Below, in pieces: positions 1 through 40,875 of a DNA stretch of 40,875 bases (position 1 is the stretch's first letter; each line of letters opens with the position of its first letter). Made by a program: the position numbers and the translations under genes. The stretch lies in the sequence record OQ703102.1, one strand, 5' to 3'. Source of the DNA: Escherichia phage vB_EcoP-R1. The notes under the pieces are model-generated. The model worked only from the letters and a program-made list of their open reading frames with translations. It ran no database searches and was not told the DNA's origin.

Positions 1-394
1 GACGGGTCAGAATGTCGCGATACAGCGCCTGACGGTGCGTTTCGTCATGGGTCGCCAGCACTTCGCCGATCTCTTTATCAATCAGCGGCTTGTCGGCTAA
101 ACCTTGCTGTGCCTGGAAGTCAGCGTGCGACGGTACGCGCATTGAACTCAGGAAGGCGTGTGGATCGTATGGCGCGCCCCAGGTGCGGTGGAAAATCATG
201 CCAAAACGACCGTCGCGCTGACGAGCATAGATACTGCTCTCTTCTTCGCCAATCAGCGAGACATCTGCGCCAATCTGGCGCATATCAGCCTGAATGATTT
301 CCGCCATCGATTTGCTTAACGCATCGGTGCCGATGAACGACAGTTCAATGCGCAGCGGCTGACCATTTTTCTCGCGGATGTCTTTGCCAGCAGG
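1..394 (-). CDS. nikA: Internal fragment of a periplasmic solute-binding protein (SBP family 5, nickel-binding NikA-like); truncated by the window edge and by the junction with phage DNA
   Basis: Minus-strand frame open across 1-394, translating ...PAGKDIREKNGQPLRIELSFIGTDALSK...RDGRFGMIFHRTWGAPYDPHAFLSSMRVPSHADFQAQQGLADKPLIDKEIGEVLATHDETHRQALYRDILTR, which matches my recollection of E. coli NikA; GC-rich enterobacterial codon usage; no start or stop inside the window. The six-frame track misses it because it runs off the window. Confidence 0.55.
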
Positions 395-461
395 ATCCAT
401 ACGGATTGGGCGTACAGCAAGTAATAAACTTTATCTTTCAATTGAATAGGAGAATTATCAT

Positions 462-5987: not shown

Positions 5988-8270
5988 ATGGCTAGTAATA
6001 TTGAATCAGCTCTGGCTAATCGGACTATGGGTCGCGGCAGAGCGCCGGGTAAAACTATCGCCGTAAACTATCAAGCAGCCAGCGTTCAGGCTCCGACTGG
6101 TGACTCCGGTCTGGCTCGTGCGTTAACCAACTTCGTTGAGTCTGGGACTGGATTGTACAAGCAGTTCAAGGACGATGAAAAGACACGGGCCGACGAGAGG
6201 TCTAACGAGATTATCCGTAAGCTGACACCTCAGCAAAGACGTGAGGCTATCCAGAACGGCACATTGCTGTATCAGGATGACCCTTACGCTATGGAAGCAC
6301 TTCGAGTCAAGACTGGTCGTAATGCTGCCTTTGCTGTAGACGACGAGATTAACGTTAAGATTCAGAACGGTGAGTTCCGTACACGTCAGGACATGGAAGA
6401 GTATCGCCACCAGCGACTTCAGGATGCCGCTAAGTCCTATGCTGAAGAGGCAGGTATTAACCCTACCGACGAGTTCTTCCAGCGTGGCTTCAACGATAAC
6501 ATCACGGACAGAAACATCGCTATCTATGGGTCTTTCAATAAGTATTTCAGCAAGCAGTCTGAAGAGACAGCAATGTTGAACACTCGTATTGAGATGAACT
6601 CATTCCTGAACGATGGCGACCTGATGCGTTCACCTGAGTCTGGCAAGACATTCATGGCCTACCTTCGGGATGGATTGACGACTGCTGCTATACCTTCGGA
6701 CCAGAGAGCACGGGAGGTCATTACCCAGACGGTCCGTGACGCAATCCAGAAGTCCGGCGGCTCAAACTTCCTACAGCAAGTACGAGGCGAGAGAATCACC
6801 CTTAACGGTGTAGATGCTACAGTCGAAGAGATTGTAGGACCGGATGTCTTCAACGCTGCTATTGTTGAGGCACAAGGTACTGAGTATAAACTGGTGGCTA
6901 AGTATCAGGAAGACTTGTCGTTAGGCGTTCAGTCTGCGATTCTTCAGGATGACCCAACCATCGGTCTGGCCCAGATTCAGAAACTCAAGGAGCAGAACAA
7001 CCTGCTTCAGCCGGGTGAAGAACTAACGCCTCAGCGTCAGATGCTTATTAACGCCGAAGCCAGCTTACTGGAAGCGGTCAAGCGTAAGTCTGCTGAACAG
7101 GCAAAGGAGAACACTAAGTTAATCCAGACCCAGAACAAGCAACTGGTCATCGACCAAGTTTATCAGCGACGTCTGGCTGGGGACAACGTGTCCACCAACT
7201 ATGAGGACCTTCCGGTCTCTGAAGCTACAGGAGAGTTCAAGCGTTCAGACATGAACAACTATGCGTCTGCTAAGCTACAGCAGATTGACCAGATGGACAT
7301 CCCTGAGGCTGCTAAGGACGCACAGAAGGTTGCATTATTAAGAGCTGACACTAACAACGGTCCGTTCCGTAATGCCTTCCAGACGCTGACTCAGGACGCT
7401 GCTGGTGAGTGGCAAGCTGCGGTCATCCGTGGGAAGTACGACCCAGACAAGATGCAACGCTTCGAATCTCTTCGTCGTGCCTACACTCAGGACCCTTCAA
7501 GTTTTTCTGCTCTGTATCCTGACCAAGCTCAGTTGTTCTCTACGTTCGACCAGATGGACAAGATGGGTCTGGACCCTCAGACGATGATTGAAGCTGATAA
7601 GCAAGCTGCAAGTCAAAGCCGTGAGATGCGCATGGAGTCAGACAAGGCGTGGCAGGAGTTGAAGAATGACTCTCGGAATAAGGACCTTTCGCGTCTTCCT
7701 ACGTCTCTGGACGCAAGTGCTCGTAAGGTCTGGGACTCATGGTACTATCGTACAGGTAACGCTGACGCTGCAACTCAGCAGACTCAACGCTGGCTGAATG
7801 AGAACACCGTAACGTTCCAGTCTGAAGGTTCTGACGGTAAGTCCATCGGCATGGTGTCCAAGCACCAGCTTATGGTCGGGGATAACCCAGAGTCGTGGCA
7901 GGTGGGTCGAGACATTATCGACACCGCTCGTAAGCAGCTCATTAAGGCCAACCCTTGGGTAGTGAACTCTCAGTTGTCCGTTGTTGAACAGAACGGCTCT
8001 ATCTTCCTCCAAGACGCTACAGGGACTATTCGTATTCGGTACGATAAAGAACTTGTAGGTAAACTCTACCGCGAACAACAGCAGAAGGCACAAGATGCCG
8101 CATACGCTCAGGCAGAACGTGACGCTAACAAGCGAGCGCGTATCGTCGGGACTAAAGCTGCTGGTGACAAACGTCGAGCTGACCGAGAGGCCAACATCGA
8201 GAAGCGCGGTGGGATGTACAATGACGTCTCACTGGAGGGTATCGCAAAAGTACTAATTGGTAAGGAGTAA
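5988..8270 (+). CDS. 15: Internal virion protein C (gp15 homolog)
   Basis: 760 aa (T7 gp15 747 aa); conserved position between gp14 and gp16; strong RBS. Confidence 0.8.
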   Translation: MASNIESALANRTMGRGRAPGKTIAVNYQAASVQAPTGDSGLARALTNFVESGTGLYKQFKDDEKTRADERSNEIIRKLTPQQRREAIQNGTLLYQDDPYAMEALRVKTGRNAAFAVDDEINVKIQNGEFRTRQDMEEYRHQRLQDAAKSYAEEAGINPTDEFFQRGFNDNITDRNIAIYGSFNKYFSKQSEETAMLNTRIEMNSFLNDGDLMRSPESGKTFMAYLRDGLTTAAIPSDQRAREVITQTVRDAIQKSGGSNFLQQVRGERITLNGVDATVEEIVGPDVFNAAIVEAQGTEYKLVAKYQEDLSLGVQSAILQDDPTIGLAQIQKLKEQNNLLQPGEELTPQRQMLINAEASLLEAVKRKSAEQAKENTKLIQTQNKQLVIDQVYQRRLAGDNVSTNYEDLPVSEATGEFKRSDMNNYASAKLQQIDQMDIPEAAKDAQKVALLRADTNNGPFRNAFQTLTQDAAGEWQAAVIRGKYDPDKMQRFESLRRAYTQDPSSFSALYPDQAQLFSTFDQMDKMGLDPQTMIEADKQAASQSREMRMESDKAWQELKNDSRNKDLSRLPTSLDASARKVWDSWYYRTGNADAATQQTQRWLNENTVTFQSEGSDGKSIGMVSKHQLMVGDNPESWQVGRDIIDTARKQLIKANPWVVNSQLSVVEQNGSIFLQDATGTIRIRYDKELVGKLYREQQQKAQDAAYAQAERDANKRARIVGTKAAGDKRRADREANIEKRGGMYNDVSLEGIAKVLIGKE

Positions 8271-15317: not shown

Positions 15318-15321
15318 GTGT

Positions 15322-15366
15322 TAGACTCAAGGTCATTACTATGTGTAGTGGCCTTTATGGTTAACA
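15322..15366 (+). promoter_or_regulatory. RNase III-type processing hairpin (R18.5-like)
   Basis: TTAGACTCAAGGTCAT...GTGGCCTTTATGGTTAA; one of three near-identical copies (also 24159 and 31550); resembles the conserved GTGGCCTTTATGATT element of T7 RNase III sites. Confidence 0.5.
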
Positions 15367-15418
15367 CTAACTAGTGGAGGAGACTCTACGTGAAATCTGA
15401 TAAACCGGGAGGGCAACT

Positions 15419-15894: not shown

Positions 15895-17661
15895 ATGTCT
15901 AAGAAAACACCTGTCGAAAGACAGGCAGAAATGACCCAAAGGATGAGGGACGACTTCGTGTTCTTCATCTTCGTTCTCTGGAAAGCTCTTAGCCTTCCGG
16001 CTCCAACCCGCTGCCAGATAGATATGTGTAAGAAGCTGGCTGCTGGGGATAATCGCCGCTTCATCCTTCAGGCGTTCCGTGGTATTGGCAAGTCGTTTCT
16101 GACCTGTGGTTTCGTGGTCTGGAAACTATGGAACAACCCAGACTTAAAGTTCATGATTGTGTCGGCCTCAAAGGAACGAGCCGATGCTAACTCCATCTTC
16201 ATCAAGCGAATAATCGACCTCATGCCTCAGCTTAAGGAACTCAAACCTAAGCAGGGGCAGCGAGATGCGGTTATCAGCTTCGACGTTGGACCAGCCAAGC
16301 CAGACCACTCACCTTCGGTTAAGTCCGTTGGTATCACTGGTCAGTTGACTGGTAGTCGTGCTGACATCCTGATTGCCGATGACGTGGAGGTTCCGAACAA
16401 CTCAGCGACTCAGTCTGCACGAGACCGTCTGTCAGAGCTTGTGAAAGAGTTCGACGCTATCCTGAAGCCGGGAGGTACAATCATCTATCTGGGTACTCCT
16501 CAGAACGAGATGACCTTGTATCGTGAGCTGGAAGGCCGTGGGTACACCACTACCATCTGGCCTGCTCGTTATCCACGCGACAGGAAGGACTGGCAGTCTT
16601 ACGGCGACCGTCTGGCACCGATGCTTCAGGCAGAGCTGGAAGAGGACCCTGAGTCCTTCTACTGGCGTCCGACCGATGAAGTACGATTCGATGATACGGA
16701 CCTGAAGGAACGTGAGCTGTCCTATGGTAAAGCTGGCTTCGCTCTACAGTTCATGCTTAACCCTAACCTGAGTGATGCTGAGAAGTACCCTCTGAAGCTC
16801 CGTGACCTTATCGTAGCCGACTTGGACCCAGCGTCTAGCCCAATGGTATACCAATGGCTTCCTAACCCTCAGAACAAGCGTGAGGACGTTCCTAACGTTG
16901 GACTCATGGGTGACTCATACCACACGTATCAGACTGTAGGTTCTGCCTTCAGTTCGTACACCCAGAAGATTCTAGTCATTGACCCTAGTGGTCGTGGTAA
17001 GGATGAAACTGGTTATGCGGTACTGTACCAGCTAAACGGCTACATCTTCGCTATGGAAGTTGGCGGTATGCGAGGTGGCTATGAAGACTCTACGCTGGAA
17101 GCCTTGGCTAAGATTGGTCGTAAGTGGAAGGTCAACGAATACGTCATTGAGGGTAACTTCGGTGATGGTATGTACCTTGAGCTATTCAAGCCTGTAGCTT
17201 CCCGTATCCATCCTGCGGCTGTAACTGAAGTGAAGAGTAAGGGTCAGAAGGAACTCCGCATCTGTGACGTTCTGGAGCCTATCATGGGGTCTCACCGACT
17301 TATCGTTAACGCTGCTGCTATCGTCCAAGACTACCAGTCTGCCTCTGATAAGGATGGTGTTCGTAATCCTATCTACTCTCTCTTCTACCAGATGACACGT
17401 ATCTCTCGTGAACGTGGAGCATTGGCACACGATGACCGACTTGATGCGCTGGCTATCGGTGTACAGTTCTTCGTTGAGTCTATGGCTAAGGATGCCAACA
17501 AAGGCGAACGTGAAGTCACTGAGGAGTGGCTGGAGGAACAGATGGAGAACCCACGGAAAGGCTTCGAGTCCATCCACACTGAGTTCTGGGACAATGGGGT
17601 CCGGGTAACTCACGATACGGACGACGAGCTTGGACTAGGGTCCTACGTTACGTTCCACTAG
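15895..17661 (+). CDS. 19: Terminase large subunit (gp19 homolog)
   Basis: 588 aa (T7 gp19 586 aa); conserved position; RBS GGAGGGA. Confidence 0.93.
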
Positions 17662-17755
17662 CTGAATGAATAACTATGGGTGAAAACTGAATTAATAAGC
17701 AGTTAGTAACCTATAGTTACTACCAGTCTAACCTACTGTTTTATAAGGAGTTTGG

Positions 17756-17778
17756 ACTTAACTATCACTATAGGGAAG
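17756..17778 (+). promoter_or_regulatory. Phage RNAP promoter (phiOR-like, near the right genome end)
   Basis: GACTTAACTATCACTATAGGGAA; +1 G at 17773. Confidence 0.8.
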
Positions 17779-17958
17779 ACCCCCGGTTACTTATAGTATT
17801 ACTGTAGTGAATATACATATGCAGACTTTATGCAAGACCTTAGGAGGCAGACTCCGAGTTCTTACCTAAGGCTTGCACCGATGGAAGGAGGGTGATATTA
17901 ATCATAATCCCTCCAATACAGATAGTCACCGACCATAGATACAGGAGGTATGTAGCAT

Positions 17959-18117
17959 ATGGCAAAGACCAAAGCTGTACTTAAAGCTCTGGCGACCAAT
18001 CGAGCTACATACAGGTTTCTTGCTGCTGTTCTACTTGCTGCTGGCGTTACTGCTGGAAGTAAGTGGGTCGGGTGGGTCGAGACTCTCGTATGTTCTCTGG
18101 TGTCTCAGTGTAATTAA
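17959..18117 (+). CDS. Small hydrophobic protein (gp19.5 position)
   Basis: 52 aa MAKTKAVLKALATNRATYRFLAAVLLAAGVTAGSKWVGWVETLVCSLVSQCN with RBS AGGAGGT 8 nt upstream; below the track size cutoff. Confidence 0.4.
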   Translation: MAKTKAVLKALATNRATYRFLAAVLLAAGVTAGSKWVGWVETLVCSLVSQCN

Positions 18118-18150
18118 CGCAATCATGGTAACGATTCATGAGCGGAAGAC

Positions 18151-18193
18151 CTAAGGTCAGTACGTGGATAAAGACTCACTCTACTGACCTTAG
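18151..18193 (+). repeat. Perfect 12-bp inverted repeat (CTAAGGTCAGTA / TACTGACCTTAG) forming a hairpin in the right-end unique region
   Basis: Read directly from the sequence; arms separated by 19 nt. Confidence 0.6.
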
Positions 18194-18355
18194 CTACTGT
18201 AGTCAAGGACTTTAGGTAACACCTTAATAGAAGCTCACCTAGGGTCATCCTACTTATTGGTCTATCCTAGTGTCGCCTGACCTACGGTCCTTGACCTACA
18301 GTAGCTGCCACCTACGGTCACTCGATGAGTTTTGGACCAAAAGTTTGAGACCACA

Positions 18356-18550
18356 TCTCACAGTTCAAGAACCTCAAGTCTCCCCATAGGCCCTCTTTCA
18401 GTCCAGACCAAAGGCCCTACCCCAGTCTATCATAAGGTTAGACCGATGGTCAAGACGTTAGGTCAACGATAGGTCTAGGCTATGGCTTAGGGAAGGACGA
18501 TAGGTAGGGACTATGGGTCTGTCTCTGAGTCTCTATCTGTATAGTGATAT
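18356..18550 (+). repeat. Genome terminal repeat region (single copy at the joined right-end/left-end junction)
   Basis: TCTCACAGTTCAAGAACCTCAAGTCTCCCCATAGG... closely resembles the first bases of the T7 left end (TCTCACAGTGTACGGACCTAAAGT...); the stretch ...GTCTCTGAGTCTCTATCTGT near 18520-18540 resembles the end of the T7 terminal repeat. Boundaries approximate. Confidence 0.5.
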
Positions 18551-18571
18551 AGTATAACATTACGTCCTACA

Positions 18572-18660
18572 CCTACAGTCTGACTAACCTACAGTCTGAC
18601 TAACCTACAGTATCAACCATAAGACACCAACACCTACAGTCAAAGACCTACAGCTAATAG
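18572..18660 (+). repeat. Short direct repeats built on CCTACAG (including a 16-bp tandem CCTACAGTCTGACTAA x2)
   Basis: Read directly; analogous in position to the CCTAAAG-type repeats next to the T7 terminal repeat. Confidence 0.6.
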
Positions 18661-18767
18661 ACACAAAGCTATAGACTTAAGGTCAGAGACATGTTAGTCA
18701 AAGACTATATCCTATTACTCACCATGGGGCCGACGATAGCTCAATCAATATTATTTAAGATTACCTA

Positions 18768-18796
18768 TTGACTACAGGTCCAGACTATGGCTTAAT
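18768..18796 (+). promoter_or_regulatory. Host sigma70-type early promoter (A1-like)
   Basis: TTGACT - 17 bp - CTTAAT with AT-rich upstream element; resembles T7 A1 (TTGACT...GATACT). Confidence 0.45.
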
Positions 18797-18908
18797 AGCT
18801 TCCGTCAACACGACACGGCAACAACCGGATAGTGAAGACGCCGGGTCATCCCGGTTAAGTAGACAGCCTGATAAGTCATACGAACAACAGGCAGATGACA
18901 GAAAGTAG

Positions 18909-18938
18909 TTGACAAGATGTACCGACTTAAAGTAGTAT
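18909..18938 (+). promoter_or_regulatory. Host sigma70-type early promoter (A3-like)
   Basis: GTTGACAAGATGTACCGACTTAAAGTAGTATGTACCACATCAAC resembles T7 A3; -35 TTGACA, -10 TAGTAT with 18-bp spacer. Confidence 0.5.
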
Positions 18939-19060
18939 GTACCACATCAACACGAAACAACGGTGACGACCAACACTGAAATGGTCTACCTGAAGTCCTC
19001 TGACTGAAGGGAATGCTCTTTAACAATCTGGATAAACTCTTAATGTGCGCCGATAGCGAC

Positions 19061-19115
19061 TAACTACAGGGTCTTTGAGTCTACATTTGAAGGCCCTGAC
19101 TGATAGTCACTAACT
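19061..19115 (+). repeat. Early-leader element copy 1 (R0.3-like), direct repeat of 19382-19430
   Basis: ...CTAACTACAGGGTC...CCTGACTGATAGTCACTAAC; the 20-nt core CCTGACTGATAGTCACTAAC is identical in both copies and resembles the T7 gene 0.3 leader. Confidence 0.5.
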
Positions 19116-19121
19116 TAACGG

Positions 19122-19376
19122 ATGGACACTATGAAACACTTAAGCACAATCACTAATCACAATGAAGTATTCGTGAACACTAAAGGTTATGCGTGGATTC
19201 AGCTTAAAGAGATGACAGGAGCGCGTCACCGTGTGGTAGTGCGCAGGGTATCAAGCAAGCCGTTCAGCAACTACAGTATAGACACTGTGCGTATAGACAA
19301 CGATACCTACCTGATAGACTCACAGATAACCGTGAGTCCTACAGCGAGCGCCTCAGCTCCTTATTTCGCTAACTGA
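19122..19376 (+). CDS. Hypothetical early protein upstream of ocr
   Basis: 84 aa ORF (alternative start ATG 19131); bracketed by two copies of the leader repeat; no recognisable motif. Confidence 0.5.
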   Translation: MDTMKHLSTITNHNEVFVNTKGYAWIQLKEMTGARHRVVVRRVSSKPFSNYSIDTVRIDNDTYLIDSQITVSPTASASAPYFAN

Positions 19377-19381
19377 GAGTG

Positions 19382-19430
19382 ATTAACTACAGGTCGTTAG
19401 ACTCATAGCGGCCTGACTGATAGTCACTAA
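19382..19430 (+). repeat. Early-leader element copy 2, immediately upstream of ocr
   Basis: Direct repeat of 19061-19115. Confidence 0.5.
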
Positions 19431-19463
19431 CATACATATAAACAACTTTGAGAGGATATAACT

Positions 19464-19967
19464 ATGGAACGCAACGCTAACGCATACTATGAGCTGCTGG
19501 CTGCAACCGTTGAGGCATTTATCGAGCGTATTCAGTACGACCACCTGACTAAAGATGACGACTACAGCGATGCGCTGCATGAGGTCGTAGACGGTCAGGT
19601 CCCGCTCTATTACCACGAGATTTTCACGGTGATGGCTGCTGATGGTATAGACCACGAGTTCGAAGACTCTGGGCTGATGCCTGAAACCAAGGACGTAACG
19701 CGTATCCTACAAGCTCGCATCTATGAGGCACTTTATAACGACGTGTCTAATAGCTTGGATGTAGTCTGGTTTGAGGATGAAGAGGCAGACGAAGAGGATG
19801 AATATTGGGTAGTTGACGCTAAAACAGGCGCAATAATTGTGCAATCTGTAGCTCTTGAGGTCGCTACTGCATGTGCCGAGGTCAACTATGCGGCAGGTCG
19901 CCACCTGAAGGTGGAAGACATCAATGATAACGTAGTGTTCGACCCTGCGGCTGAGGACTGCGAGTGA
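19464..19967 (+). CDS. 0.3: Ocr-like anti-restriction DNA mimic (gp0.3 homolog) with a C-terminal extension of about 50 aa
   Basis: 167 aa; ...[54 protein letters not shown]... parallels T7 Ocr (...[46 protein letters not shown]...); acidic run [12 protein letters not shown], then extra non-acidic sequence absent from T7 Ocr (117 aa). Confidence 0.85.
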
Positions 19968-20121
19968 TGATAACTTACGGTTTATGCCAGCACCACGTCA
20001 CCAACGCCAGGATTTTGGTCAAAACCGGGCGGTTAAACCACGAGGAGGCCATGCGTCTCTTGAAAGTGGTCTACAGGAGACGCAAGCGCATACACGATAG
20101 TTTACACACTGAGTGATAGAC

Positions 20122-20158
20122 GAGAGGTCATCGACTGATAGGTGGCCTCAAAGATTAT
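20122..20158 (+). promoter_or_regulatory. RNase III-type hairpin (R0.5-like)
   Basis: GAGGTCATCGACTGATAGGTGGCCTCAAAGATTA matches the AAGGTCAT...GTGGCCT...ATTA pattern of the other hairpins. Confidence 0.35.
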
Positions 20159-20182
20159 CACTTACATTGATAGGGGTTAACT

Positions 20183-20287
20183 ATGAGCACTGCAGTCATC
20201 TGGACTATCTCAGGCTTCGTAGCGTGGGGAATGTTTACTCTAGTCTGCAAACTACCGGTCCTTACTCAACTGTTATGGGGCTTATGA
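20183..20287 (+). CDS. Small hydrophobic early protein (gp0.4-like position)
   Basis: 34 aa MSTAVIWTISGFVAWGMFTLVCKLPVLTQLLWGL; ATG 20183; single predicted transmembrane helix. Confidence 0.35.
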   Translation: MSTAVIWTISGFVAWGMFTLVCKLPVLTQLLWGL

Positions 20288-20487
20288 CTATGAGTAGCAC
20301 ACTATTGATAGCCATAGGCTATGGACTTATCGCCTACGTGCTGGTGAGAGACATCAACAAAGCGCGTAAAGTCTATAAATTCAACTATGTACGTATGGTC
20401 CGCTGGACTGTACGTCAACCTAACGGACGATTCCTGCGCAATTTAGCGAACGTCTGGGATATAGCAACTCTTGGGAGCAAACTGTAA
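20284..20487 (+). CDS. Small early protein (gp0.5/0.6 position)
   Basis: 67 aa from ATG 20284 (overlaps the preceding stop as ATGA); same frame as track ORF 20113..20487, whose upstream part lacks a credible start. Confidence 0.35.
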   Translation: MTMSSTLLIAIGYGLIAYVLVRDINKARKVYKFNYVRMVRWTVRQPNGRFLRNLANVWDIATLGSKL

Positions 20488-20813
20488 TGAACAAGTCATA
20501 CGGGATTAATCTGGTACACTCTATGGACGCAGAAATGAACATGTTAAGCCTACTGGCTACCGGGTATCGTCACGGAACATCAAGTCACACCGCACGTCAA
20601 CAGCAGGAGCGGGACCGTGTACTACAGGCGCGACTCCGGGCAGAGGGCCATAAGTCCGAACTGATGTGTCTGGCGTATGGTGGACGACCAATCACCGACG
20701 ATGGTAAACTTTTAGTCTCAGGCTGGAAGGCGATAGACCAACGGTCAACCATCAAGCACACGACTCACGGTGACTTCAGTCATCTTCACGCTAACCCACT
20801 GATATGCAAGTAA
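20487..20813 (+). CDS. Hypothetical early protein occupying the position of T7 gene 0.7 (no kinase)
   Basis: 108 aa, no kinase motifs; T7 gp0.7 is 359 aa. Confidence 0.45.
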   Translation: MNKSYGINLVHSMDAEMNMLSLLATGYRHGTSSHTARQQQERDRVLQARLRAEGHKSELMCLAYGGRPITDDGKLLVSGWKAIDQRSTIKHTTHGDFSHLHANPLICK

Positions 20814-20818
20814 TTATG

Positions 20819-20841
20819 ACTTAACTATCACTATAGGACTC
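20819..20841 (+). promoter_or_regulatory. Phage RNAP promoter immediately upstream of the RNAP gene
   Basis: GACTTAACTATCACTATAGGACT; +1 G at 20836; followed by tandem repeats CAAGTGAAAGAC (20857 and 20881). Confidence 0.75.
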
Positions 20842-20910
20842 AAGGTCTAAGACTCCAAGTGAAAGACCAAAGAGACTCTAAGTGAAAGACTAATAACAAG
20901 GACTTTAAGT

Positions 20911-23592
20911 ATGAGCGTCATCTCTATTGACAAACATGACTTCTCTGATGTGTCAAACGCCATTGAGCCGTTTAACCTGCTGGCCGACCACTACGGGCAA
21001 GACCTTGCAGTCAAACAGCTTCAGCTTGAGCATGAGGCATATACAGAAGGCGAGCGACGTTTCATCAAGAACCTTGAGCGCCAGACCGAGCGCGGGGAAC
21101 TGGCAGACAATCAGGTCGCCAAGCCTTTGATGCAGACTCTGGTCCCTAAGATTGCGCAAGCCGTCAGGGAGTGGCACGAAGGCCTAGACGGGAAGCTGTC
21201 AACCTCGCGTCCTAGCGTAGCGTTCACCATGTTGAGCACTGAAGAGAAGGCCGTAAAGGACCGCTCTATGCGCATCTCCTGTGAGTCCGCTGCGGTTATC
21301 ATACTGAAGGTCATACTCTCCAAGCTGGTCAAGCCTGAAGGGATACCGATTACACCGATGGCCTCCGCGATAGGTCGCACACTTGAGGACGAAATCCGCT
21401 TCGGTCGCATCCGTGACAAAGAGAAGGAGCACTTCAAGAAGGCGATAGCTGAGAACCTGAACAAGCGAGCTGGGGCATCCTACAAGAAAGCCTACATGCA
21501 AGCGGTCGAGGCGTCCATGCTGGAGCAAGGCCAACTGGAAGATGCATGGGGGACTTGGAGTCCTACAGAGGCTGTCCACGTTGGCATCAAGATGCTCGAG
21601 ATTGTCATCCAGTCAACACAACTGGTCGAGCTTAAGCGGTACGGTGCTGGTAATGCAGCGGCTGACGTAGAGATGGTCCACCTGTCAGACTTCTGGGTCA
21701 AGAAGATGGCACAACGAGGATTCAGCCTTGCGGGTATCGCTCCAGTCTACCAGCCTTGCGTCGTTCCACCTAAGCCGTGGACTGGTGTCGTAGGTGGTGG
21801 GTACTGGGCCAAAGGTCGCAGACCGTTACCATTGATTCGCTTAGGGTCTAAGTCTGCGGTAGCACGTTATGAAGACGTATACATGCCTGAAGTCTATGAC
21901 GCTGTGAACATCATTCAGAATACACCTTGGAAAGTTAACAAGAAGGTATTGGACGTGGTGAACATGGTCGAGAAGCTGAACAACACGCCTATTGATGACA
22001 TCCCTCAGATGGAACCGCTGAAGCCTGAGGACTATGCTGGTGAAACCGAGGAGGAACTCAAGGCATGGAAGAAGGCTGCTGCTGGTATCTATCGCCGCGA
22101 GAAGGCCAGACAGTCACGCAGATTGTCCATGAGTTTCATCGTATCACAGGCCAACAAGTTCTCACAGTTTAAGGCCATCTGGTTCCCGTACAACATGGAT
22201 TGGCGAGGTCGTGTCTACGCTGTCCCGATGTTCAACCCTCAGGGTAACGACATGCAGAAGGGTCTACTGACTCTGGCGGTCGGAAAGCCTATCGGGGCGG
22301 ATGGTTTCAAATGGCTTAAAGTCCACACCGCCAACTGCGCGGGTGTCGATAAGGTAACCTTTGAGGAGCGTATCAAATGGGTGGAAGACAATCACGAGAA
22401 CATTCTGGCAGCAGCCAAATCACCGATGGACAGCATCGAGTGGTGGGGGAGTATGGACAGCCCCTTCTGCTTCCTAGCGGCTTGCTTCGAGTATTCTGGG
22501 GTGATGAACCATGGCTTGACCTACAATTGCTCACTTCCGATTGCCTTCGACGGCTCGTGTTCGGGGATTCAGCACTTCAGCGCGATGCTGAGGGACCACG
22601 TAGGCGGACATGCAGTGAACTTAACGCCGTCTGGTCAGGTGCAGGACATCTACCGTATAGTCTCAGACCGTGTGTCAGACCAGTTGAAAGAGCTATTACT
22701 GATCGGTACGGACGACGAGCTGGTGACCGTAGAGGACAAGAAGACTGGGGAAATCAGCGAACGCCTGAAGCTTGGGACCAAGAGTCTTGCGCGTCAGTGG
22801 CTGCAATTCGGTATGTCTCGCTCGGTCACTAAGCGCTCGGTCATGACTCTGGCCTACGGGTCGAAAGAGTATGGGTTCGCCGACCAAGTGTTCGAAGACA
22901 CCGTGATGCCAGCGATTGACTCCGGTAAGGGAGCAATGTTCACCGAGCCAAGCCAAGCGTCTCGCTTCATGGCTAAGATGATTTGGGAAGCTGTGAGTGT
23001 GACAGTAGTTGCTGCGGTTGACGCGATGAAGTGGCTTCAAGGTGCCGCCAAGCTGCTGGCTGCTGAAGTGAAGGACAAGAAGACTGGTGAAATCCTGAAG
23101 CCATGCCTTCCGGTACACTGGGTCACACCTGATGGGTTCCCGGTCTGGCAGGAATACCGCAAGAAGGATACCACTCGTCTGAACCTGATGTTCTTAGGGT
23201 CCTTCAACCTTCAACCTACGGTCAACAAAGGTACGAAGAAAGAGCTGGACAAGCACAAGCAGGAGTCAGGCATTAGCCCGAACTTCGTCCACTCACAAGA
23301 TGGTAGCCACCTCCGCAAGACTGTAGTCCACACGCACCGCAAGTATGGCGTGATGTCATTCGCAGTGATTCACGATAGCTTCGGGACCATCCCGGCTGAC
23401 GCTGAGTATCTGTTCCGTGGCGTCCGTGAGACGATGGTAGAGACATACCGCGATAACGATGTGCTGCTTGACTTCTACGAGCAGTTTGAATACCAGCTTC
23501 ATGAAAGCCAGCGCGACAAGTTGCCTGAGCTTCCGAAGAAAGGTAAACTGAATATCGAAGACATCTTGTCTTCAGACTTTGCATTCGCTTAA
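20911..23592 (+). CDS. 1: Single-subunit DNA-dependent RNA polymerase (gp1 homolog)
   Basis: 893 aa; NDFSD...PFN.LADHYG, GRIRD.E..HFKK, PCVVPPKPWTG..GGGYWA.GRRPL, AIWFPYNMDWRGRVYA, FDGSCSGIQHFSAMLRD, RSVTKRSVMTLAYGSKE, HDSFGT and C-terminal FAFA all parallel T7 RNAP. Confidence 0.97.
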   Translation: MSVISIDKHDFSDVSNAIEPFNLLADHYGQDLAVKQLQLEHEAYTEGERRFIKNLERQTERGELADNQVAKPLMQTLVPKIAQAVREWHEGLDGKLSTSRPSVAFTMLSTEEKAVKDRSMRISCESAAVIILKVILSKLVKPEGIPITPMASAIGRTLEDEIRFGRIRDKEKEHFKKAIAENLNKRAGASYKKAYMQAVEASMLEQGQLEDAWGTWSPTEAVHVGIKMLEIVIQSTQLVELKRYGAGNAAADVEMVHLSDFWVKKMAQRGFSLAGIAPVYQPCVVPPKPWTGVVGGGYWAKGRRPLPLIRLGSKSAVARYEDVYMPEVYDAVNIIQNTPWKVNKKVLDVVNMVEKLNNTPIDDIPQMEPLKPEDYAGETEEELKAWKKAAAGIYRREKARQSRRLSMSFIVSQANKFSQFKAIWFPYNMDWRGRVYAVPMFNPQGNDMQKGLLTLAVGKPIGADGFKWLKVHTANCAGVDKVTFEERIKWVEDNHENILAAAKSPMDSIEWWGSMDSPFCFLAACFEYSGVMNHGLTYNCSLPIAFDGSCSGIQHFSAMLRDHVGGHAVNLTPSGQVQDIYRIVSDRVSDQLKELLLIGTDDELVTVEDKKTGEISERLKLGTKSLARQWLQFGMSRSVTKRSVMTLAYGSKEYGFADQVFEDTVMPAIDSGKGAMFTEPSQASRFMAKMIWEAVSVTVVAAVDAMKWLQGAAKLLAAEVKDKKTGEILKPCLPVHWVTPDGFPVWQEYRKKDTTRLNLMFLGSFNLQPTVNKGTKKELDKHKQESGISPNFVHSQDGSHLRKTVVHTHRKYGVMSFAVIHDSFGTIPADAEYLFRGVRETMVETYRDNDVLLDFYEQFEYQLHESQRDKLPELPKKGKLNIEDILSSDFAFA

Positions 23593-23607
23593 CAGGAGGA
23601 GAAGTAT

Positions 23608-23838
23608 ATGTCAATTAAACTTGTAGCACACAACAGGACATACAACGATGGGTCGGGACGTTGCCATGTAGAGCTGACTTATAGGGATTTAGTCATTCTC
23701 CGAGACAGATTACAAGCGGGTGTGACTGGGTGGATTAAACCTAACGAGTACAACCTTATAGCTTCGATTGATGAAGTGCTTAACGCGTGGATGGAAGACG
23801 AGCGCACTCAGTATCCATCATTCCCTATAATTAGATAA
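23608..23838 (+). CDS. Hypothetical protein (between gene 1 and gene 1.1)
   Basis: 76 aa; strong RBS AGGAGGAGAAG; no recognisable motif. Confidence 0.5.
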   Translation: MSIKLVAHNRTYNDGSGRCHVELTYRDLVILRDRLQAGVTGWIKPNEYNLIASIDEVLNAWMEDERTQYPSFPIIR

Positions 23839-23848
23839 GGAGAGAGTT

Positions 23849-24064
23849 ATGAAATTTGCACACAAGCATGCTGGAGTTAATGGCGGGACTCAAATCGTGA
23901 CCGTAACAGAACACAACGGCAATGGTCTGGTGAAGACCACGGTCATTCCTACCGAAATGTCAAAGCAGCTTAACGTCCCATTCAAGACCCTCGTCTATCT
24001 TGTGGAATCCAGCCACGAGAAATACCTGAAAGACGCAGTGACCAAGCTGGAGCAGACCAAATGA
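23849..24064 (+). CDS. Hypothetical protein (between gene 1 and gene 1.1)
   Basis: 71 aa; RBS AAGGAGAGAG; no recognisable motif. Confidence 0.5.
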   Translation: MKFAHKHAGVNGGTQIVTVTEHNGNGLVKTTVIPTEMSKQLNVPFKTLVYLVESSHEKYLKDAVTKLEQTK

Positions 24065-24138
24065 CAGACCTACAGGTACTGGCCTTGTGGCTGGGAGCAC
24101 TCGCAGTATTCACTTTAATCCCACGCAGAAGAGGTTAA
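24061..24138 (+). CDS. Putative 25-aa membrane peptide
   Basis: MTDLQVLALWLGALAVFTLIPRRRG; start overlaps the upstream stop (ATGA); below the track cutoff. Confidence 0.3.
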   Translation: MTDLQVLALWLGALAVFTLIPRRRG

Positions 24139-24161
24139 CCTAAACTATCACTATAGGATTA
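24139..24161 (+). promoter_or_regulatory. Phage RNAP promoter (phi1.1-like)
   Basis: ACCTAAACTATCACTATAGGATT; +1 G at 24156. Confidence 0.8.
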
Positions 24162-24206
24162 GACTCAAGGTCATGACTCAAAGTCGTGGCCTTCATGATT
24201 AACCCT
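24159..24206 (+). promoter_or_regulatory. RNase III-type processing hairpin (R1.1-like)
   Basis: TTAGACTCAAGGTCATGACTCAAAGTCGTGGCCTTCATGATTAACC; near-identical to the copies at 15322 and 31550. Confidence 0.5.
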
Positions 24207-24231
24207 AACTCATTCAATCAGGAGCTACACC

Positions 24232-24411
24232 ATGTATCAGAACACTATCAACTTCGAGCGCATCCGTGAACGTCAGCAGACTGAAGATTATATTCCGAAG
24301 GGCCGAAAGCTGAACAAGACCAAGCGGGGCGGCGGTGTCAAGGGTGCTTTCCGTAACGCTGAAGGCAAAGACTCTATGGTCAACCAAGAGAAGTATTTCG
24401 TAGGAGCATAA
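24232..24411 (+). CDS. 1.1: gp1.1-like small basic protein
   Basis: 59 aa MYQNTINFERIRERQQTEDYIPKGRKLNKTKRGGGVKGAF...; the KGRKLNKTKR stretch matches T7 gp1.1 as I recall it; below the track cutoff. Confidence 0.6.
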   Translation: MYQNTINFERIRERQQTEDYIPKGRKLNKTKRGGGVKGAFRNAEGKDSMVNQEKYFVGA

Positions 24412-24414
24412 GAC

Positions 24415-24663
24415 ATGAGCAGACGTTGGGTATTTGATGCGTCCACCAGCCAGTGGTCATCGTTAGGCCGGACACACCGCGAGCTGAGTGAGGCAGGACT
24501 TGAGGTCAGAATGGATGTCCTGCCGTGCTCCGGAAAGACTCTGGTCCTAATCATTGAAGCAGACGGGAAGCCTCTGGTATCCCGCGAGTTCACCGAACAC
24601 GAAATCTTTAGCTGTGAGCAATGGTGCTTGCAACAACTGAATGCTTATAGGAGCTGGAAATAA
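24415..24663 (+). CDS. gp1.2-position protein (possible dGTPase inhibitor homolog)
   Basis: 82 aa (T7 gp1.2 85 aa) directly upstream of ligase; assigned by position and size. Confidence 0.45.
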   Translation: MSRRWVFDASTSQWSSLGRTHRELSEAGLEVRMDVLPCSGKTLVLIIEADGKPLVSREFTEHEIFSCEQWCLQQLNAYRSWK

Positions 24664-25727: not shown

Positions 25728-25738
25728 CTAAACGTCAA

Positions 25739-25769
25739 CCCAGTGGTCTTCGGACTGCTGGGTTTCTTT
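25739..25769 (+). terminator. Intrinsic terminator after ligase (TE-like early terminator)
   Basis: 10-bp stem CCCAGTGGTC / GACTGCTGGG (two G-U pairs), loop TTCG, then TTTCTTT; same position as T7 TE. Confidence 0.6.
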
Positions 25770-27235: not shown

Positions 27236-27253
27236 ACTATCACTGTAGGACAG
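27231..27253 (+). promoter_or_regulatory. Phage RNAP promoter variant (phi2.5-like), G at -3
   Basis: CCTAAACTATCACTGTAGGACAG; one mismatch to the family core (TATA to TGTA). Confidence 0.6.
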
Positions 27254-27292: not shown

Positions 27293-27991
27293 ATGGCTAA
27301 AGAGCAACTGAAGACTTTCACCACTCCGGTAGCTGGTATCGTTGAGCCTTACGCATGGCTGAACAAAGCAGACACTAAGTTTAACGAGCGTGGTGAGCAT
27401 AAGGTTAACCTGACATTCGACCTGAGCAGCCCGAAGGTCCGTAAGATGATTGATGTCTTACAGAAGATTCACGACGATGCGTATGCGAAAGCACTTGCAG
27501 ACCACGAGAAGAACCCACCTCAGGTTCAGCGTGGCAAGAAGCCTATTGAACCACGAGAAGGCGACATGCCGTGGATTGAGAATGGTGACGGTACTGTTAC
27601 CATGAAGTTTAAATGCTTCGCGTCTTACCTGAAGGATGGTAAGTCAGAGCCTATCGTATTACGGTTCTACGACACCGATGCTAAGTTAATCCGTGACGTC
27701 CCGAATATTGGCGCTGGCTCCAAACTGAAGGTCAAGTTTAAAGTCCTTCCGTTCAAGTGGAACGCTGCGACTGGTGCAAGCGTTAAGCTCCAGCTTGAGT
27801 CCTGCCTTCTGGTAGAACTGAAGGAGTGGAAAGGCGATGGTGCTGGTAGCGATGGTGGCTGGGGTGATGATGAAGACCTCGGTACTGGCTACAAAGCGTC
27901 AACCGATGGTGACTTCGGGTCTGACGACTTCAGTGACGATGGTTGTGATGGCGATGACGACTCCAACTCTGGTGGCGATTACGACTTCTAA
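27293..27991 (+). CDS. 2.5: Single-stranded DNA-binding protein (gp2.5 homolog)
   Basis: 232 aa, same length as T7 gp2.5; acidic C-terminal tail ending ...DDDSNSGGDYDF. Confidence 0.9.
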   Translation: MAKEQLKTFTTPVAGIVEPYAWLNKADTKFNERGEHKVNLTFDLSSPKVRKMIDVLQKIHDDAYAKALADHEKNPPQVQRGKKPIEPREGDMPWIENGDGTVTMKFKCFASYLKDGKSEPIVLRFYDTDAKLIRDVPNIGAGSKLKVKFKVLPFKWNAATGASVKLQLESCLLVELKEWKGDGAGSDGGWGDDEDLGTGYKASTDGDFGSDDFSDDGCDGDDDSNSGGDYDF

Positions 27992-28443: not shown

Positions 28444-28913
28444 TGACTCAGAAATATAGACTTAAAGTTAGCATCTACGGGTGGCCTAGAGGTACTATCG
28501 TCACAAAATGTGCGAAAGACCCTGTACCAGTGCCTGGACTTGTTCTGGTGGAATCCACTGAGCGTGGCCTCTACAAGCACGGAGCAGCGGGGCATAACAG
28601 TCAGCCTGACGGAATGTGGGGGGCATGGGTTTCAAATGAATATCTTGAGGAAATTGGAGAGGATAAACCTCAAGTCCTGCCAGCCTCAAGCGTCCCTCCT
28701 GTCACCGTTAAACGTGAAGTCCTGACCATCGACAAGATTGGTGTAGGCCAGACGTTCATCGTCCACGGGAAGCCTGAAGAAGTTTACGTGAAGATTAGCA
28801 ACTCACACGTCTTCAACCATAAGCGTCTCCAGATGCACACCACGGACGCACAGCGCTTCACCCAGCACCTGAATCTAGTGGTCGTAGAATTGGTGGTGTA
28901 CAATGGTAAGTAA
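28443..28913 (+). CDS. Hypothetical protein inserted between endonuclease I and amidase
   Basis: 156 aa from ATG 28443 (track start 28440 is a GTG); RBS AAAGGAG; no counterpart in T7, where gene 3.5 follows gene 3. Confidence 0.55.
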   Translation: MTQKYRLKVSIYGWPRGTIVTKCAKDPVPVPGLVLVESTERGLYKHGAAGHNSQPDGMWGAWVSNEYLEEIGEDKPQVLPASSVPPVTVKREVLTIDKIGVGQTFIVHGKPEEVYVKISNSHVFNHKRLQMHTTDAQRFTQHLNLVVVELVVYNGK

Positions 28914-29361
28914 GGTACAGTTCAACCCACGGTCCCGGACTGACGCTATCTTCGTTCACTGTTCGGCTACCAAGCCAGAGATGGACATCGGGGTAGAGAC
29001 CATCCGTATGTGGCACAAGCAGCAAGGATGGCTGGACGTAGGCTACCACTTTATCATCAAACGTGATGGCACTGTGGAAGAGGGTCGCCCGGTCAATGTC
29101 GTAGGGTCACACGTTAAGGACTGGAACTCCAAGTCCGTAGGCGTCTGCCTTGTAGGTGGAATTGACGCTAAGGGCAAGTTTGAAGCTAACTTCACTCCGG
29201 CCCAGATGAACTCACTGCGCACCAAGCTGGCTGACCTGAAGGCCCTGTATCCTCAGGCAGAAATAAAAGCACACCATGATGTAGCACCTAAGGCGTGTCC
29301 AAGTTTCGACTTGCAGCGCTGGCTATCTACCAATGAACTGGTAACTTCCGACCGTGGTTAA
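28903..29361 (+). CDS. 3.5: N-acetylmuramoyl-L-alanine amidase / T7 lysozyme (gp3.5 homolog)
   Basis: 152 aa; ...TDAIFVHCSATKP...WLDVGYHFIIKRDGTVEEGR...VGVCLVGGIDAKGKF.ANFTPAQM...AHHDVAPKACPSFDL.RW...NELVTSDRG nearly collinear with T7 gp3.5. Confidence 0.95.
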   Translation: MVSKVQFNPRSRTDAIFVHCSATKPEMDIGVETIRMWHKQQGWLDVGYHFIIKRDGTVEEGRPVNVVGSHVKDWNSKSVGVCLVGGIDAKGKFEANFTPAQMNSLRTKLADLKALYPQAEIKAHHDVAPKACPSFDLQRWLSTNELVTSDRG

Positions 29362-29601: not shown

Positions 29602-29619
29602 ACTATCACCTTAGGGATG
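29597..29619 (+). promoter_or_regulatory. Phage RNAP promoter variant (phi4-like), two substitutions at -4/-3
   Basis: GCCTAAACTATCACCTTAGGGAT; upstream half conserved, TATA box changed to CTTA. Confidence 0.5.
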
Positions 29620-29666: not shown

Positions 29667-31370
<1,704 letters not shown>

Positions 31371-36443: not shown

Positions 36444-36466
36444 ACTAAACTATCACTATAGGGACT
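36444..36466 (+). promoter_or_regulatory. Phage RNAP promoter (phi6.5-like)
   Basis: CACTAAACTATCACTATAGGGAC; +1 G at 36461; followed by an inverted-repeat leader (GACTTTAGGACC...GACTTTAGTC). Confidence 0.8.
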
Positions 36467-39760: not shown

Positions 39761-40605
39761 ATGTCTCAATCAGTTTATGCCGAGTTCGGCGTTAGCTCTA
39801 ATGCAATCACTGGTTCCGTTGAGGACCTGAACGAACACCAGAAGTCTATGCTTGAACAGGACGTAGCTGTTCGTGATGGCGACGACGCTATTACTTTCAA
39901 GCAACTGGAAGCCGAAAACGAAGAGGCGACCGAAGAAGACGAGAACGTCGAAGAGACTGAAGGTGAAGAAGACCACGAGTCCGATGACGAAGAGTCTGAG
40001 ACCGATGGTGAGCAGCCTGAGTTCATCGAACTGGGTGATGCACCAAAAGAGCTGACCGAAAGTGTCACCGCTCTGGATGAAAACGAAGCTGCATTCGACG
40101 ACATGGTGTCTTCTGCTGTAGAAGCTGGCAAGGTCACTGCTGATGAAATTACCGCTATCAAGGCTGAATACGCCAAGGACGGTAAGCTGTCTGACGCATC
40201 CTACGCTAAGTTGCAGGAAGCAGGTTACACCAAGCGTTTCGTAGATTCGTTTGTCCGTGGTCAGGAAGCTCTTGCTGAACAGTATGCTGCTGGTGTGGTT
40301 CGCTACGCTGGTGGTGCTGAACAGTTTAATCGCATCCTGTCACACCTTGAGTCCAACGACCCGTCAACTCGTGAAGCACTGGAAGCTGCTATCGTTCGTA
40401 AGGACATTGCGACTACCAAAGCTCTGCTGAATCTGGCTGGCAAGACTCTGGGTAAAGCTGTAGGTGTTAAACCTCAGCGAACCATCACCACTCAGGCTAA
40501 ACCTGTGGTCGCACCTAAGGCTCCTCAGACCGAAGCATTCAGCTCCAAGGCTGACATGATTAAGGCTATGAGTGACCCGCGATACCTGCGTGACGCTAAG
40601 TACAC
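39761..40605 (+). CDS. 9: Scaffolding protein (gp9 homolog), 3-prime truncated and fused in-frame to non-phage sequence
   Basis: MSQSVYAEFGVSSNAITGSVEDL...VRDGDDAI..., acidic EEDE-rich region, ...FVRGQEALAEQY...AMSDPRY parallel T7 gp9; no stop codon, and after about 40605 the translation no longer looks like gp9. Confidence 0.85.
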
Positions 40606-40843
40606 GGTGTTTAGTTTTCAGGCTGGCGCACTGGCAGGTGTGCAAATTGTTTCACAAGCTGCAAAACGCAGTGCCGATGGCGAGCTGCTGTTAGCGACCC
40701 GTAACCGCTTGAGTAGTGTTGTTCCACTGTCGCCAGACGCCTGGCAAATGTTGAGCGCGCCGTTGCGCCAGCCGGGCATTGTGGCTTTGCGGGAATATTT
40801 ACGCCAGCGTCCCCCCGCCTGCATACGACCACTCAACCAGGTC
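40606..40843 (+). other. Unidentified non-phage, GC-rich coding-like fragment (probable bacterial chromosomal DNA) joined in-frame to gene 9
   Basis: Open + frame ...LAGVQIVSQAAKRSADGELLLATRNRLSSVVPLSPDAWQMLSAPLRQPGIVALREYLRQRP... with GC content clearly higher than the phage; I cannot assign it from sequence alone. Confidence 0.3.
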
Positions 40844-40875
40844 AGATCGGAAGAGCGTCGTGTAGGGAAAGAGTG
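40844..40875 (+). other. Illumina TruSeq adapter sequence (AGATCGGAAGAGCGTCGTGTAGGGAAAGAGTG)
   Basis: Exact 32-nt match to the standard Illumina adapter read-through sequence at the extreme 3-prime end of the window. Confidence 0.95.

Follow-up and report, generated by a model that had tools for sequence, protein, structure and literature searches.

A K1F-type phage promoter directly before the RNA polymerase gene of Escherichia phage vB_EcoP-R1 and a probable self-sustaining loop of polymerase synthesis in Kayfunavirus

The stretch of DNA analysed in this work (40,875 nucleotides of record OQ703102.1, referred to as the window) comprises almost the whole genome, in circularly permuted form, of a K1F-like coliphage of the genus Kayfunavirus in the Studiervirinae. 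The 1 kb surrounding the locus of interest was 98.9 % identical to phage IME177 and was matched by 211 phage records. Gene 1, encoding a single-subunit RNA polymerase (RNAP) of 893 aa, occupies positions 20911 to 23592 on the plus strand (phrog_414 RNA polymerase, E = 0); its product is 99.9 % identical to the IME177 RNAP and carries the same specificity loop as the K1F enzyme. The left end of the K1F genome corresponds to window position 18356, hence gene 1 lies about 2.5 kb from the genome left end, as it does in K1F. The preceding early orf of 108 aa (20487-20813, plus strand; phrog_7066, function unknown) ends with a stop codon placed 5 nt ahead of position −17 of the promoter described below. 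The K1F counterpart of this orf is shorter and unannotated.

Between the early orf and gene 1 a K1F-type phage RNAP promoter, ACTTAACTATCACTATA GGACTC, extends from −17 to +6 on the plus strand (20819-20841) as an exact match to the consensus. Its 17-mer ACTATCACTATAGGACT was found at 20824-20840 and the first G of the GG pair, the predicted +1, is at 20836. Since the ATG of the RNAP gene begins at 20911, the leader is 75 nt long. The sequence-only reading of this DNA had proposed a full-consensus phage-type promoter 75 nt upstream of the RNAP start codon, and both the sequence and the distance were borne out. A search with the 17-mer allowing up to 3 mismatches returned 9 sites, all of them on the plus strand, in comparison to 0.09 expected, and none of the 100 shuffled sequences reached 9; the minus strand, searched at the same stringency for inverted decoys in repeats, gave no match. 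A tenth promoter-like site at 29602 is weaker than the other nine. The aligned sites yielded the consensus CTWAACTATCACTATAGG, with which the gene-1 site agrees at all positions. The block of approximately 23 bp thus recurs on the transcribed strand before gene clusters in the manner of T7-group promoters, and its ACTATC motif at −12 to −7 is matched by a specificity loop identical to that of K1F.

The neighbouring phage promoters were also located. A phiOR-like promoter follows the terminase gene (17761-17777, plus strand). No phiOL-like promoter was found from the genome left end (about 18356) to 20824. The next promoter downstream of gene 1 is phi1.1A-like and, together with a T7 R1.1-type hairpin at 24160-24210, spans positions 24144 to 24210 of the plus strand; the hairpin folds to −20.7 kcal/mol (z −2.9) and the whole promoter and hairpin region resembles the T7 phi1.1A/R1.1 sequence. 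Another hairpin of the T7 type was noticed at 15320-15372.

The 75-nt leader (20836-20910, plus strand), the 5' UTR of the predicted phage-initiated gene-1 mRNA, is A-rich and unstructured. Its minimum free energy of −14.5 kcal/mol (z +0.41) is no better than that of shuffled sequence. With 43 % of A it belongs to the top 0.3 % of 75-nt windows of the genome, and its AT content of 61 % places it in the top 4 %. T accounts for only 19 %, and this strand asymmetry points to a constraint at the RNA level rather than at the DNA level. The leader runs into a translation initiation module, AAGGACTTTAAGTATG (20898-20913, plus strand), composed of the Shine-Dalgarno motif AAGGA at 20898-20902, an 8-nt spacer and the ATG. 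The module is kept in relatives of subgroup a (K1F-type), subgroup b (marked by A at −2 of the gene-1 promoter) and subgroup c (marked by ACCCT); phage Kc166A has AAGGACTTAAAGTATG in its place and the relative L014 (subgroup d) differs too. Comparison of K1F-type relatives with the window in sliding windows gave a mean identity of 97.5-97.8 % for the promoter and leader and 94-98 % for the flanks. The leader is barely more conserved than the coding flanks, so that conservation is no argument for selection on the leader itself; an estimate of such selection from the contrast with third codon positions of the whole gene was discarded as overstated, the flanks being nearly as conserved in the sliding window. 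Small upstream orfs (GTG AAA GAC and following codons) noticed by eye in each repeat of the leader were likewise rejected, as they are not conserved in relatives L015, L038 and L014.

A direct repeat occupies much of the leader. Copy 1, AGACTCCAAGTGAAAGACCAA (20850-20870), and copy 2, AGACTCTAAGTGAAAGACTAA (20873-20893), both on the plus strand, are identical at 19 of 21 positions and lie 23 nt apart. They are preceded by a degenerate first unit of an iterated GACT..AAG motif, GACTCAAGGTCTAAGACT (20837-20854, plus strand), and degenerate GACTYYAAGT units begin at 20837 and 20901. The tandem repeat noted earlier from the letters alone, placed at 20857 and 20881, is thus real, but the unit is longer than had been stated, with its true length being 21 nt, and the coordinates were slightly off: the 12-mer CAAGTGAAAGAC is exact at 20856-20867, its second copy at 20879-20890 is TAAGTGAAAGAC, which begins with T and contains one mismatch, and the exact 11-mer common to both copies starts at 20857 and 20880. 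The 12-mer gave 8 matches in the window when up to 2 mismatches were allowed, versus 4.3 expected, which is no enrichment. GACTYYAAGT-like words were about four-fold enriched genome-wide (51 versus 12 expected), and three of the five exact copies fall within the gene-1 leader. The unit start GACTCAAGGTC is common to this leader and to the leader of the promoter at 24144. Tandem Repeats Finder reported nothing in the leader region because the copies number only two.

The repeat varies considerably among relatives. Two copies of the exact repeat were found only in the K1F-type subgroup, and the second repeat reads GACTCT in the window and GACTTT in most relatives. L015 and L038 have a degenerate copy 1, and the units are rearranged in genomes of the L010 type (subgroup b), in Kc166A and in L014. 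What the other subgroups retain is GGACTCAAGGTC at the beginning, a number of GACT..AAG units and the ribosome-binding module; the 21-nt duplication is missing from them. Neither the number of units nor their sequence is conserved across relatives in the way expected of iterons. The 21-nt repeat is best read as a lineage-specific duplication in a leader built of iterated GACT..AAG units.

The promoter itself is conserved in position throughout the clade. K1F (DQ111067) carries an identical gene-1 promoter, its promoter and leader lie at 2470-2566, and the leader differs from that of the window at 2 of 75 bases; neither K1F nor other Kayfunavirus genomes such as PE3-1 and Sparklingdew differ materially from the window at this locus. 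Promoter and leader were present together in 221 phage records, in agreement with 220 records encoding an RNAP at least 80 % identical to that of the window. To extend the comparison, 80 loci around RNAP relatives were taken from IMG/VR, and a locus was scored as positive when a 16-mer promoter word, with no more than 1 mismatch, occurred both in the 250 nt preceding gene 1 and downstream of the gene. All 20 tested loci with an RNAP at least 78 % identical carried the word before gene 1, with the predicted +1 lying 75-93 nt from the ATG. The 34 T7-, T3- and K11-like loci tested, with 58-63 % RNAP identity, all lacked it, and no phage promoter was present within 250-300 nt upstream of gene 1 in the T7-, T3-, K11- or Berlin-type loci tested.

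The gene-1 promoter changes in step with the other promoters of the same genome and with the polymerase. In the window and in K1F every promoter, including that of gene 1, has ACTATC at −12 to −7, and the specificity loop is RLNLMFLGSFNLQ. In L015 and L038 every promoter including that of gene 1 has TTAAACCCTCACTATAGGA and the loop is RLDLMFLGTFRLQ, whereas in L014 the corresponding elements are AAGGAAGGTACACTATAGG and RIKLMFMG-VQYR. Relatives with ACCCTC or GGTACA promoters have different RNAP loops, and their gene-1 promoters change accordingly. The L015 and L038 loop shows an Asn-to-Asp change alongside C-rich bases at −11 and −10, the classic T7/T3 specificity switch. A deviation from this pattern was seen in L010, L011, L012, L017 and L019, which have A at −2 in the gene-1 promoter alone and T in their other promoters; it suggests that the gene-1 site has been tuned down in some lineages. 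Its co-variation with the genome promoters and with the polymerase loop makes function of the gene-1 promoter very probable, and a chance or relic copy of a phage promoter at this place appears very unlikely. Temme et al. tested the K1F loop in a hybrid system, in which T7 RNAP bearing this loop gave a 17-fold activation of a promoter with the −12 to −7 consensus of the K1F subfamily (PMC3458549).

The position taken by the promoter, between the last early gene and gene 1, is occupied differently in T7-, T3-, K11- and Berlin-type phages. Sequences from T7, one K11-like locus and one Berlinvirus were folded, and each showed a strong two-tier hairpin upstream of gene 1 (about −20 kcal/mol, z −2.8 to −3.7). 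Among the remaining T7-, T3- and K11-like loci the sequences before gene 1 resemble one another. The T7 hairpin is the R1 RNase III site. The window has the promoter here and no such hairpin: the 57 nt upstream of the +1 fold to just −3.4 kcal/mol. The absence of the hairpin from exactly this spot raises the question of whether the promoter core and the second repeat could form an RNase III-type hairpin of their own, confined to host-initiated read-through transcripts and replacing R1, with the repeat as its 3' arm. A fold of 20815-20898 in which promoter bases pair with repeat 2 (−17.2 kcal/mol, z −2.0) speaks for it, but longer contexts around the same segment fold like shuffled sequence (z +0.19). 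The energy of the promoter-leader duplex was then compared with dinucleotide-preserving shuffles of the leader, 1000 for each of six representatives. Shuffled leaders folded at least equally well in 222 cases for the window and in 103 for L009 (both of subgroup a), in 417 for L015 (subgroup c), in 249 for Kc166A and in 695 for L014. The sole significant representative was L010, with 8 in 1000, and its subgroup b contains a perfect 11-nt inverted repeat, TATCACTAAAG / CTTTAGTGATA, that includes the divergent promoter base −2A. The paired columns are nearly invariant within the subgroup of the window, so covariation gives no test, and Rfam at gathering thresholds returned no match, the one hit in the region being at chance level (E = 0.52). 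A processing hairpin in the window was rejected on these grounds, and the rival explanation built on it is given little credence. The earlier suggestion that the repeat might be a processing site fares no better, as the leader lacks structure, its pairing with the promoter is at chance and Rfam offers no family for it. A related idea, that two classes of gene-1 mRNA exist, one read through from upstream and carrying a promoter-repeat hairpin for processing or stability in place of R1, the other initiated by the phage enzyme without the 5' arm and hence unstructured, is also distinctly improbable. If it were true, one piece of DNA would serve both as a promoter and as a transcript-class-specific RNA switch for polymerase translation or mRNA stability, early versus late. 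The only real hints of it are the 11-nt inverted repeat of the L010 type and the matching −2A; the hairpin is intriguing for the L010 lineage and lends no support to one in the window.

Other explanations accept the promoter, or at least the sequence, and assign it a different role. It may be functional and yet selected for something other than polymerase amplification, either as a replication origin, activated by transcription like T7 phi1.1A/B with its AT-rich region or like phiOL, or as the class II promoter that first serves genes 1.1-1.3, the extra gene-1 mRNA being a by-product. Such a role would suit the leftmost phage promoter of a genome in which no phiOL-like site precedes it and a single promoter (24144) lies downstream of gene 1, where T7 has the tandem phi1.1A/phi1.1B and an AT-rich leader. 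The last 14 nt of the leader, GGACTTTAAGTATG, are moreover identical to the T7 gene 1.1 start region, the end of the phi1.1B leader, and the leader is AT-richer than 96 % of 75-nt windows. The resemblance to phi1.1B, however, does not reach beyond the ribosome-binding module, as the similarity of the rest of the leader was not significant (207 of 2000 shuffles), and homology to the phi1.1B origin leader, being restricted to 12-14 nt, was dismissed. An AT-rich origin finds little favour as well: at 61 % AT the leader is surpassed by the one following the promoter at 36449, which reaches 65-71 %, and its strand-asymmetric composition points to the RNA level. Transcripts starting at this promoter must also cross gene 1 and would amplify it regardless of any further role. 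We therefore regard an origin or by-product role as rather unlikely. The view that the element serves the sigma-70 polymerase of the host, or else is a chance or relic copy without function, has some basis in the record of phage PE3-1 (KJ748011, 2014), where the promoter annotation covering the homologous 23 nt bears the remark 'host RNAP promoter', and in the minor E. coli promoter C of T7 at 3113, just upstream of gene 1. The annotated 23 nt, though, are precisely the phage promoter from −17 to +6, the same record calls its other 23-nt sites phi6.5 and phi9, and no sigma-70-like match was found on the plus strand near 20780-20850. A relic would not match three promoter specificities, each time alongside the polymerase, or be 100 % identical throughout the K1F-type subgroup, and this last explanation is extremely unlikely.

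We prefer to read the element as a class II-type promoter, probably active, from which the phage RNAP starts directly before gene 1, and as part of a loop that is primed by the host and then sustains itself. The layout of the region corresponds to that of an autogene: the cognate promoter precedes the RNAP orf and points in the same direction, and a search for terminator-like sites from 17500 to 24500 found none. A candidate source of the first gene-1 transcripts is a sigma-70-like early promoter at 18909-18938 on the plus strand (TTGACA, 18 nt, TAGTAT; 10 of 12 consensus positions), the scan being a count of consensus matches whose sites are no more numerous than in shuffled sequence. With this promoter and no terminator before gene 1, the host polymerase could supply the first gene-1 transcripts. 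The host-transcribed early unit may end at an intrinsic-terminator-like hairpin after the ligase gene (25737-25764, plus strand; a 12-bp stem followed by a T-tract), which is TE-like. In K1F the terminator has been placed at 7128-7161 (PMC4099482).

According to this preferred reading, host RNAP would start at sigma-70-type early promoters near 18.8-18.9 kb and read through the early genes into gene 1, giving rise to the first polymerase. The first phage RNAP molecules would then recognise ACTATC at −12 to −7 together with the ACTATA core and start at G20836, producing a second gene-1 mRNA with the A-rich, unstructured leader and the strong ribosome-binding module. A phage RNAP that transcribes its own gene from 20836 would make its synthesis self-sustaining, with positive feedback and free of the host polymerase, and its transcripts would continue into genes 1.1-1.3 and beyond. 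Positive autoregulation of gene 1, also proposed when only the letters had been seen, can soundly be inferred from this arrangement. The GACT..AAG units of the leader most likely act at the level of the mRNA, in ribosome loading or leader accessibility, since an unstructured leader of strand-asymmetric composition suits such a role better than a DNA-level or a processing role. T7 lysozyme inhibits T7 RNAP, and by analogy the T7-lysozyme-like amidase encoded at 28903-29358 is a likely brake on the feedback.

Parts of this arrangement have appeared in previous records and publications. For Sparklingdew, another Kayfunavirus, eight CTWAACTATCACTATAGG repeats were given in 2026 as probable promoters, including one at the SPD_007 3' end, SPD_008 being the RNAP gene (PMC13298934). 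Autoregulation at this site is undiscussed in the accessible Kayfunavirus sources, and the searchable literature yielded no transcript, 5'-end or reporter data on the gene-1 promoter, nor a transcriptome, for any Kayfunavirus. The closest mapped parallel is the phage promoter phi1, directly upstream of the RNAP gene of Pseudomonas phage LUZ100, which was located by ONT-cappable-seq and incorporated in a model of positive feedback with host read-through supplying the first polymerase (PMC10134795). LUZ100 is a distant, temperate-like T7 relative, for whose loop a MarR-like repressor has been proposed as the gate, whereas no repressor was seen at the Kayfunavirus locus and the promoter is known here from sequence. 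In vibriophage phiA318 a predicted phage promoter upstream of the kinase and RNAP genes was read as autoregulation (PMC4099482). The Pseudomonas phages NOI and Pf1 ERZ-2017 (Ghunavirus) contain a genome-consensus promoter; its predicted +1 precedes the RNAP start by about 103 nt, and the shared promoter word begins 116-122 nt before that start. Their leader has three CTTAAAG motifs and a 12-bp long-range stem from the +1, a stem that is lacking in the window, and the promoter sequences of both Ghunavirus and phiA318 differ from that of the window. Phage SP6 was rejected as a precedent, as its record has no site (up to 3 mismatches) before 6287.

The same circuit logic is found in the synthetic T7 autogene, in which T7 gene 1 is placed under a T7 promoter (PMC6395690, PMC1500874); that circuit is engineered, whereas the Kayfunavirus arrangement is natural, genus-wide and set in a host-primed early operon. 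In the T7 record the stretch between positions 405 and 5848 is free of annotated T7 promoters, and the 300 nt before gene 1 contain no recurring promoter-like word. The statement in the sequence-only reading that host promoters alone transcribe T7 gene 1 thus holds for the region adjoining the gene and has to be qualified for the genome, because the T7 record places phiOL at 405, ahead of gene 1 and in the same orientation.

For the window as such the gene-1 promoter is nothing new, as it is a standard Kayfunavirus feature already contained in public records. In the textbook model of T7, gene 1 is a purely host-transcribed early gene. The Kayfunavirus clade, represented by 221 records and including every relative examined, has a cognate phage promoter where T7 has an RNase III site, and synthesis of its polymerase is, judging from this organization, probably self-amplifying and independent of the shut-off of host polymerase. 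K1F polymerase-promoter pairs serve as orthogonal parts in synthetic biology, so a natural and evolutionarily stable autogene of this kind would be a useful reference design. The arrangement bears on models of the timing of gene expression in the T7 group and on engineered K1F phages.

The vB_EcoP-R1 contig is a chimeric assembly. Sequence matching showed that both termini of the window (1-395 and 40610-40875) are foreign to the phage: positions 1-394 correspond to E. coli nikA (99.7 % identity), positions ~40605-40847 to E. coli yehQ (98.8 % identity), and the final ~32 nt to an Illumina adapter (AGATCGGAAGAGCGTCGTGTAGGGAAAGAGTG). Phage homology ends at 40609, within scaffold gene 9, and restarts at 396. 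Due to the chimeric junction (40610-40875 / 1-461) the window lacks the terminal 3' part of gene 9 as well as the gene-10 leader and the promoter that would precede the capsid gene, which in PE3-1 is located at 21446-21468. The loss of this promoter at the junction explains why the promoter scan of the window found no phage promoter in front of position 462, where the capsid gene starts. Two promoter variants with deviating cores, CACTGTAGG (27236-27252) and CACCTTAGG (29602-29618), lie upstream of a 232-aa ORF at 27293 and a 566-aa ORF at 29670, respectively, and are possibly weaker class II promoters.

The public records of related phages were also inspected. In PE3-1 (KJ748011.1) a phage-type 23-nt promoter 5' of gene 1 (2874-2896) is annotated as 'host RNAP promoter', which is probably a mislabel because the record gives its other 23-nt sites the names phi6.5, phi9 and phi. 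The K1F record has no features annotated across 2208-2566; an unannotated 65-aa ORF with a GTG start, present at 2271-2468, matches the C-terminal part of the 108-aa ORF encoded at 20487-20813 of the window (phrog_7066). A phage database search also returned MT350292.1, 'Enterococcus phage EFA-1', with an RNAP 95.4 % identical to that of the coliphage studied here. The Enterococcus host assignment of this record looks doubtful.

In one Kayfunavirus subgroup among the RNAP relatives (records L010, L011, L012, L017 and L019; L010 positions 2407-2471) an A at -2 is confined to the gene-1 promoter (CACTAAAGG), the remaining promoters of these genomes being CACTATAGG. Through this -2A, promoter and leader together make up a perfect inverted repeat of 11 nt (TATCACTAAAG / CTTTAGTGATA); for L010, 8 of 1000 shuffles of the leader gave a promoter-leader duplex at least as stable. 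A genome-consensus promoter (ATTTAAAAACCCTCACTGTGG) is also present upstream of the RNAP gene in two Ghunavirus genomes, NOI and Pf1 ERZ-2017 (L084 3378-3500 and L085 2869-2991, respectively), with the predicted +1 ~103 nt 5' of the gene. There, a 12-bp long-range stem (GGCTGCACACAC / GTGTGGGCAGCC) begins at +1 and encloses three CTTAAAG motifs. Phage gh-1 is described as being without a phage promoter of such type (PMC4099482).

Across the whole window the word GACTYYAAGT, with at most one mismatch allowed, was observed 51 times versus 12 expected from shuffles. By eye, several promoter leaders also hold related GACT..AAG or CTTAAG-like words.

Finally, two 52-nt segments of the window, 24159-24210 and 15321-15372, are 83 % identical to each other, and both folded into two-tier hairpins of the T7 type (z of -2.9 and -2.7, respectively). 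The former occupies the position of the T7 RNase III site R1.1, following a phi1.1A-like promoter, and the latter that of R18.5; both hairpins are probably RNase III sites.
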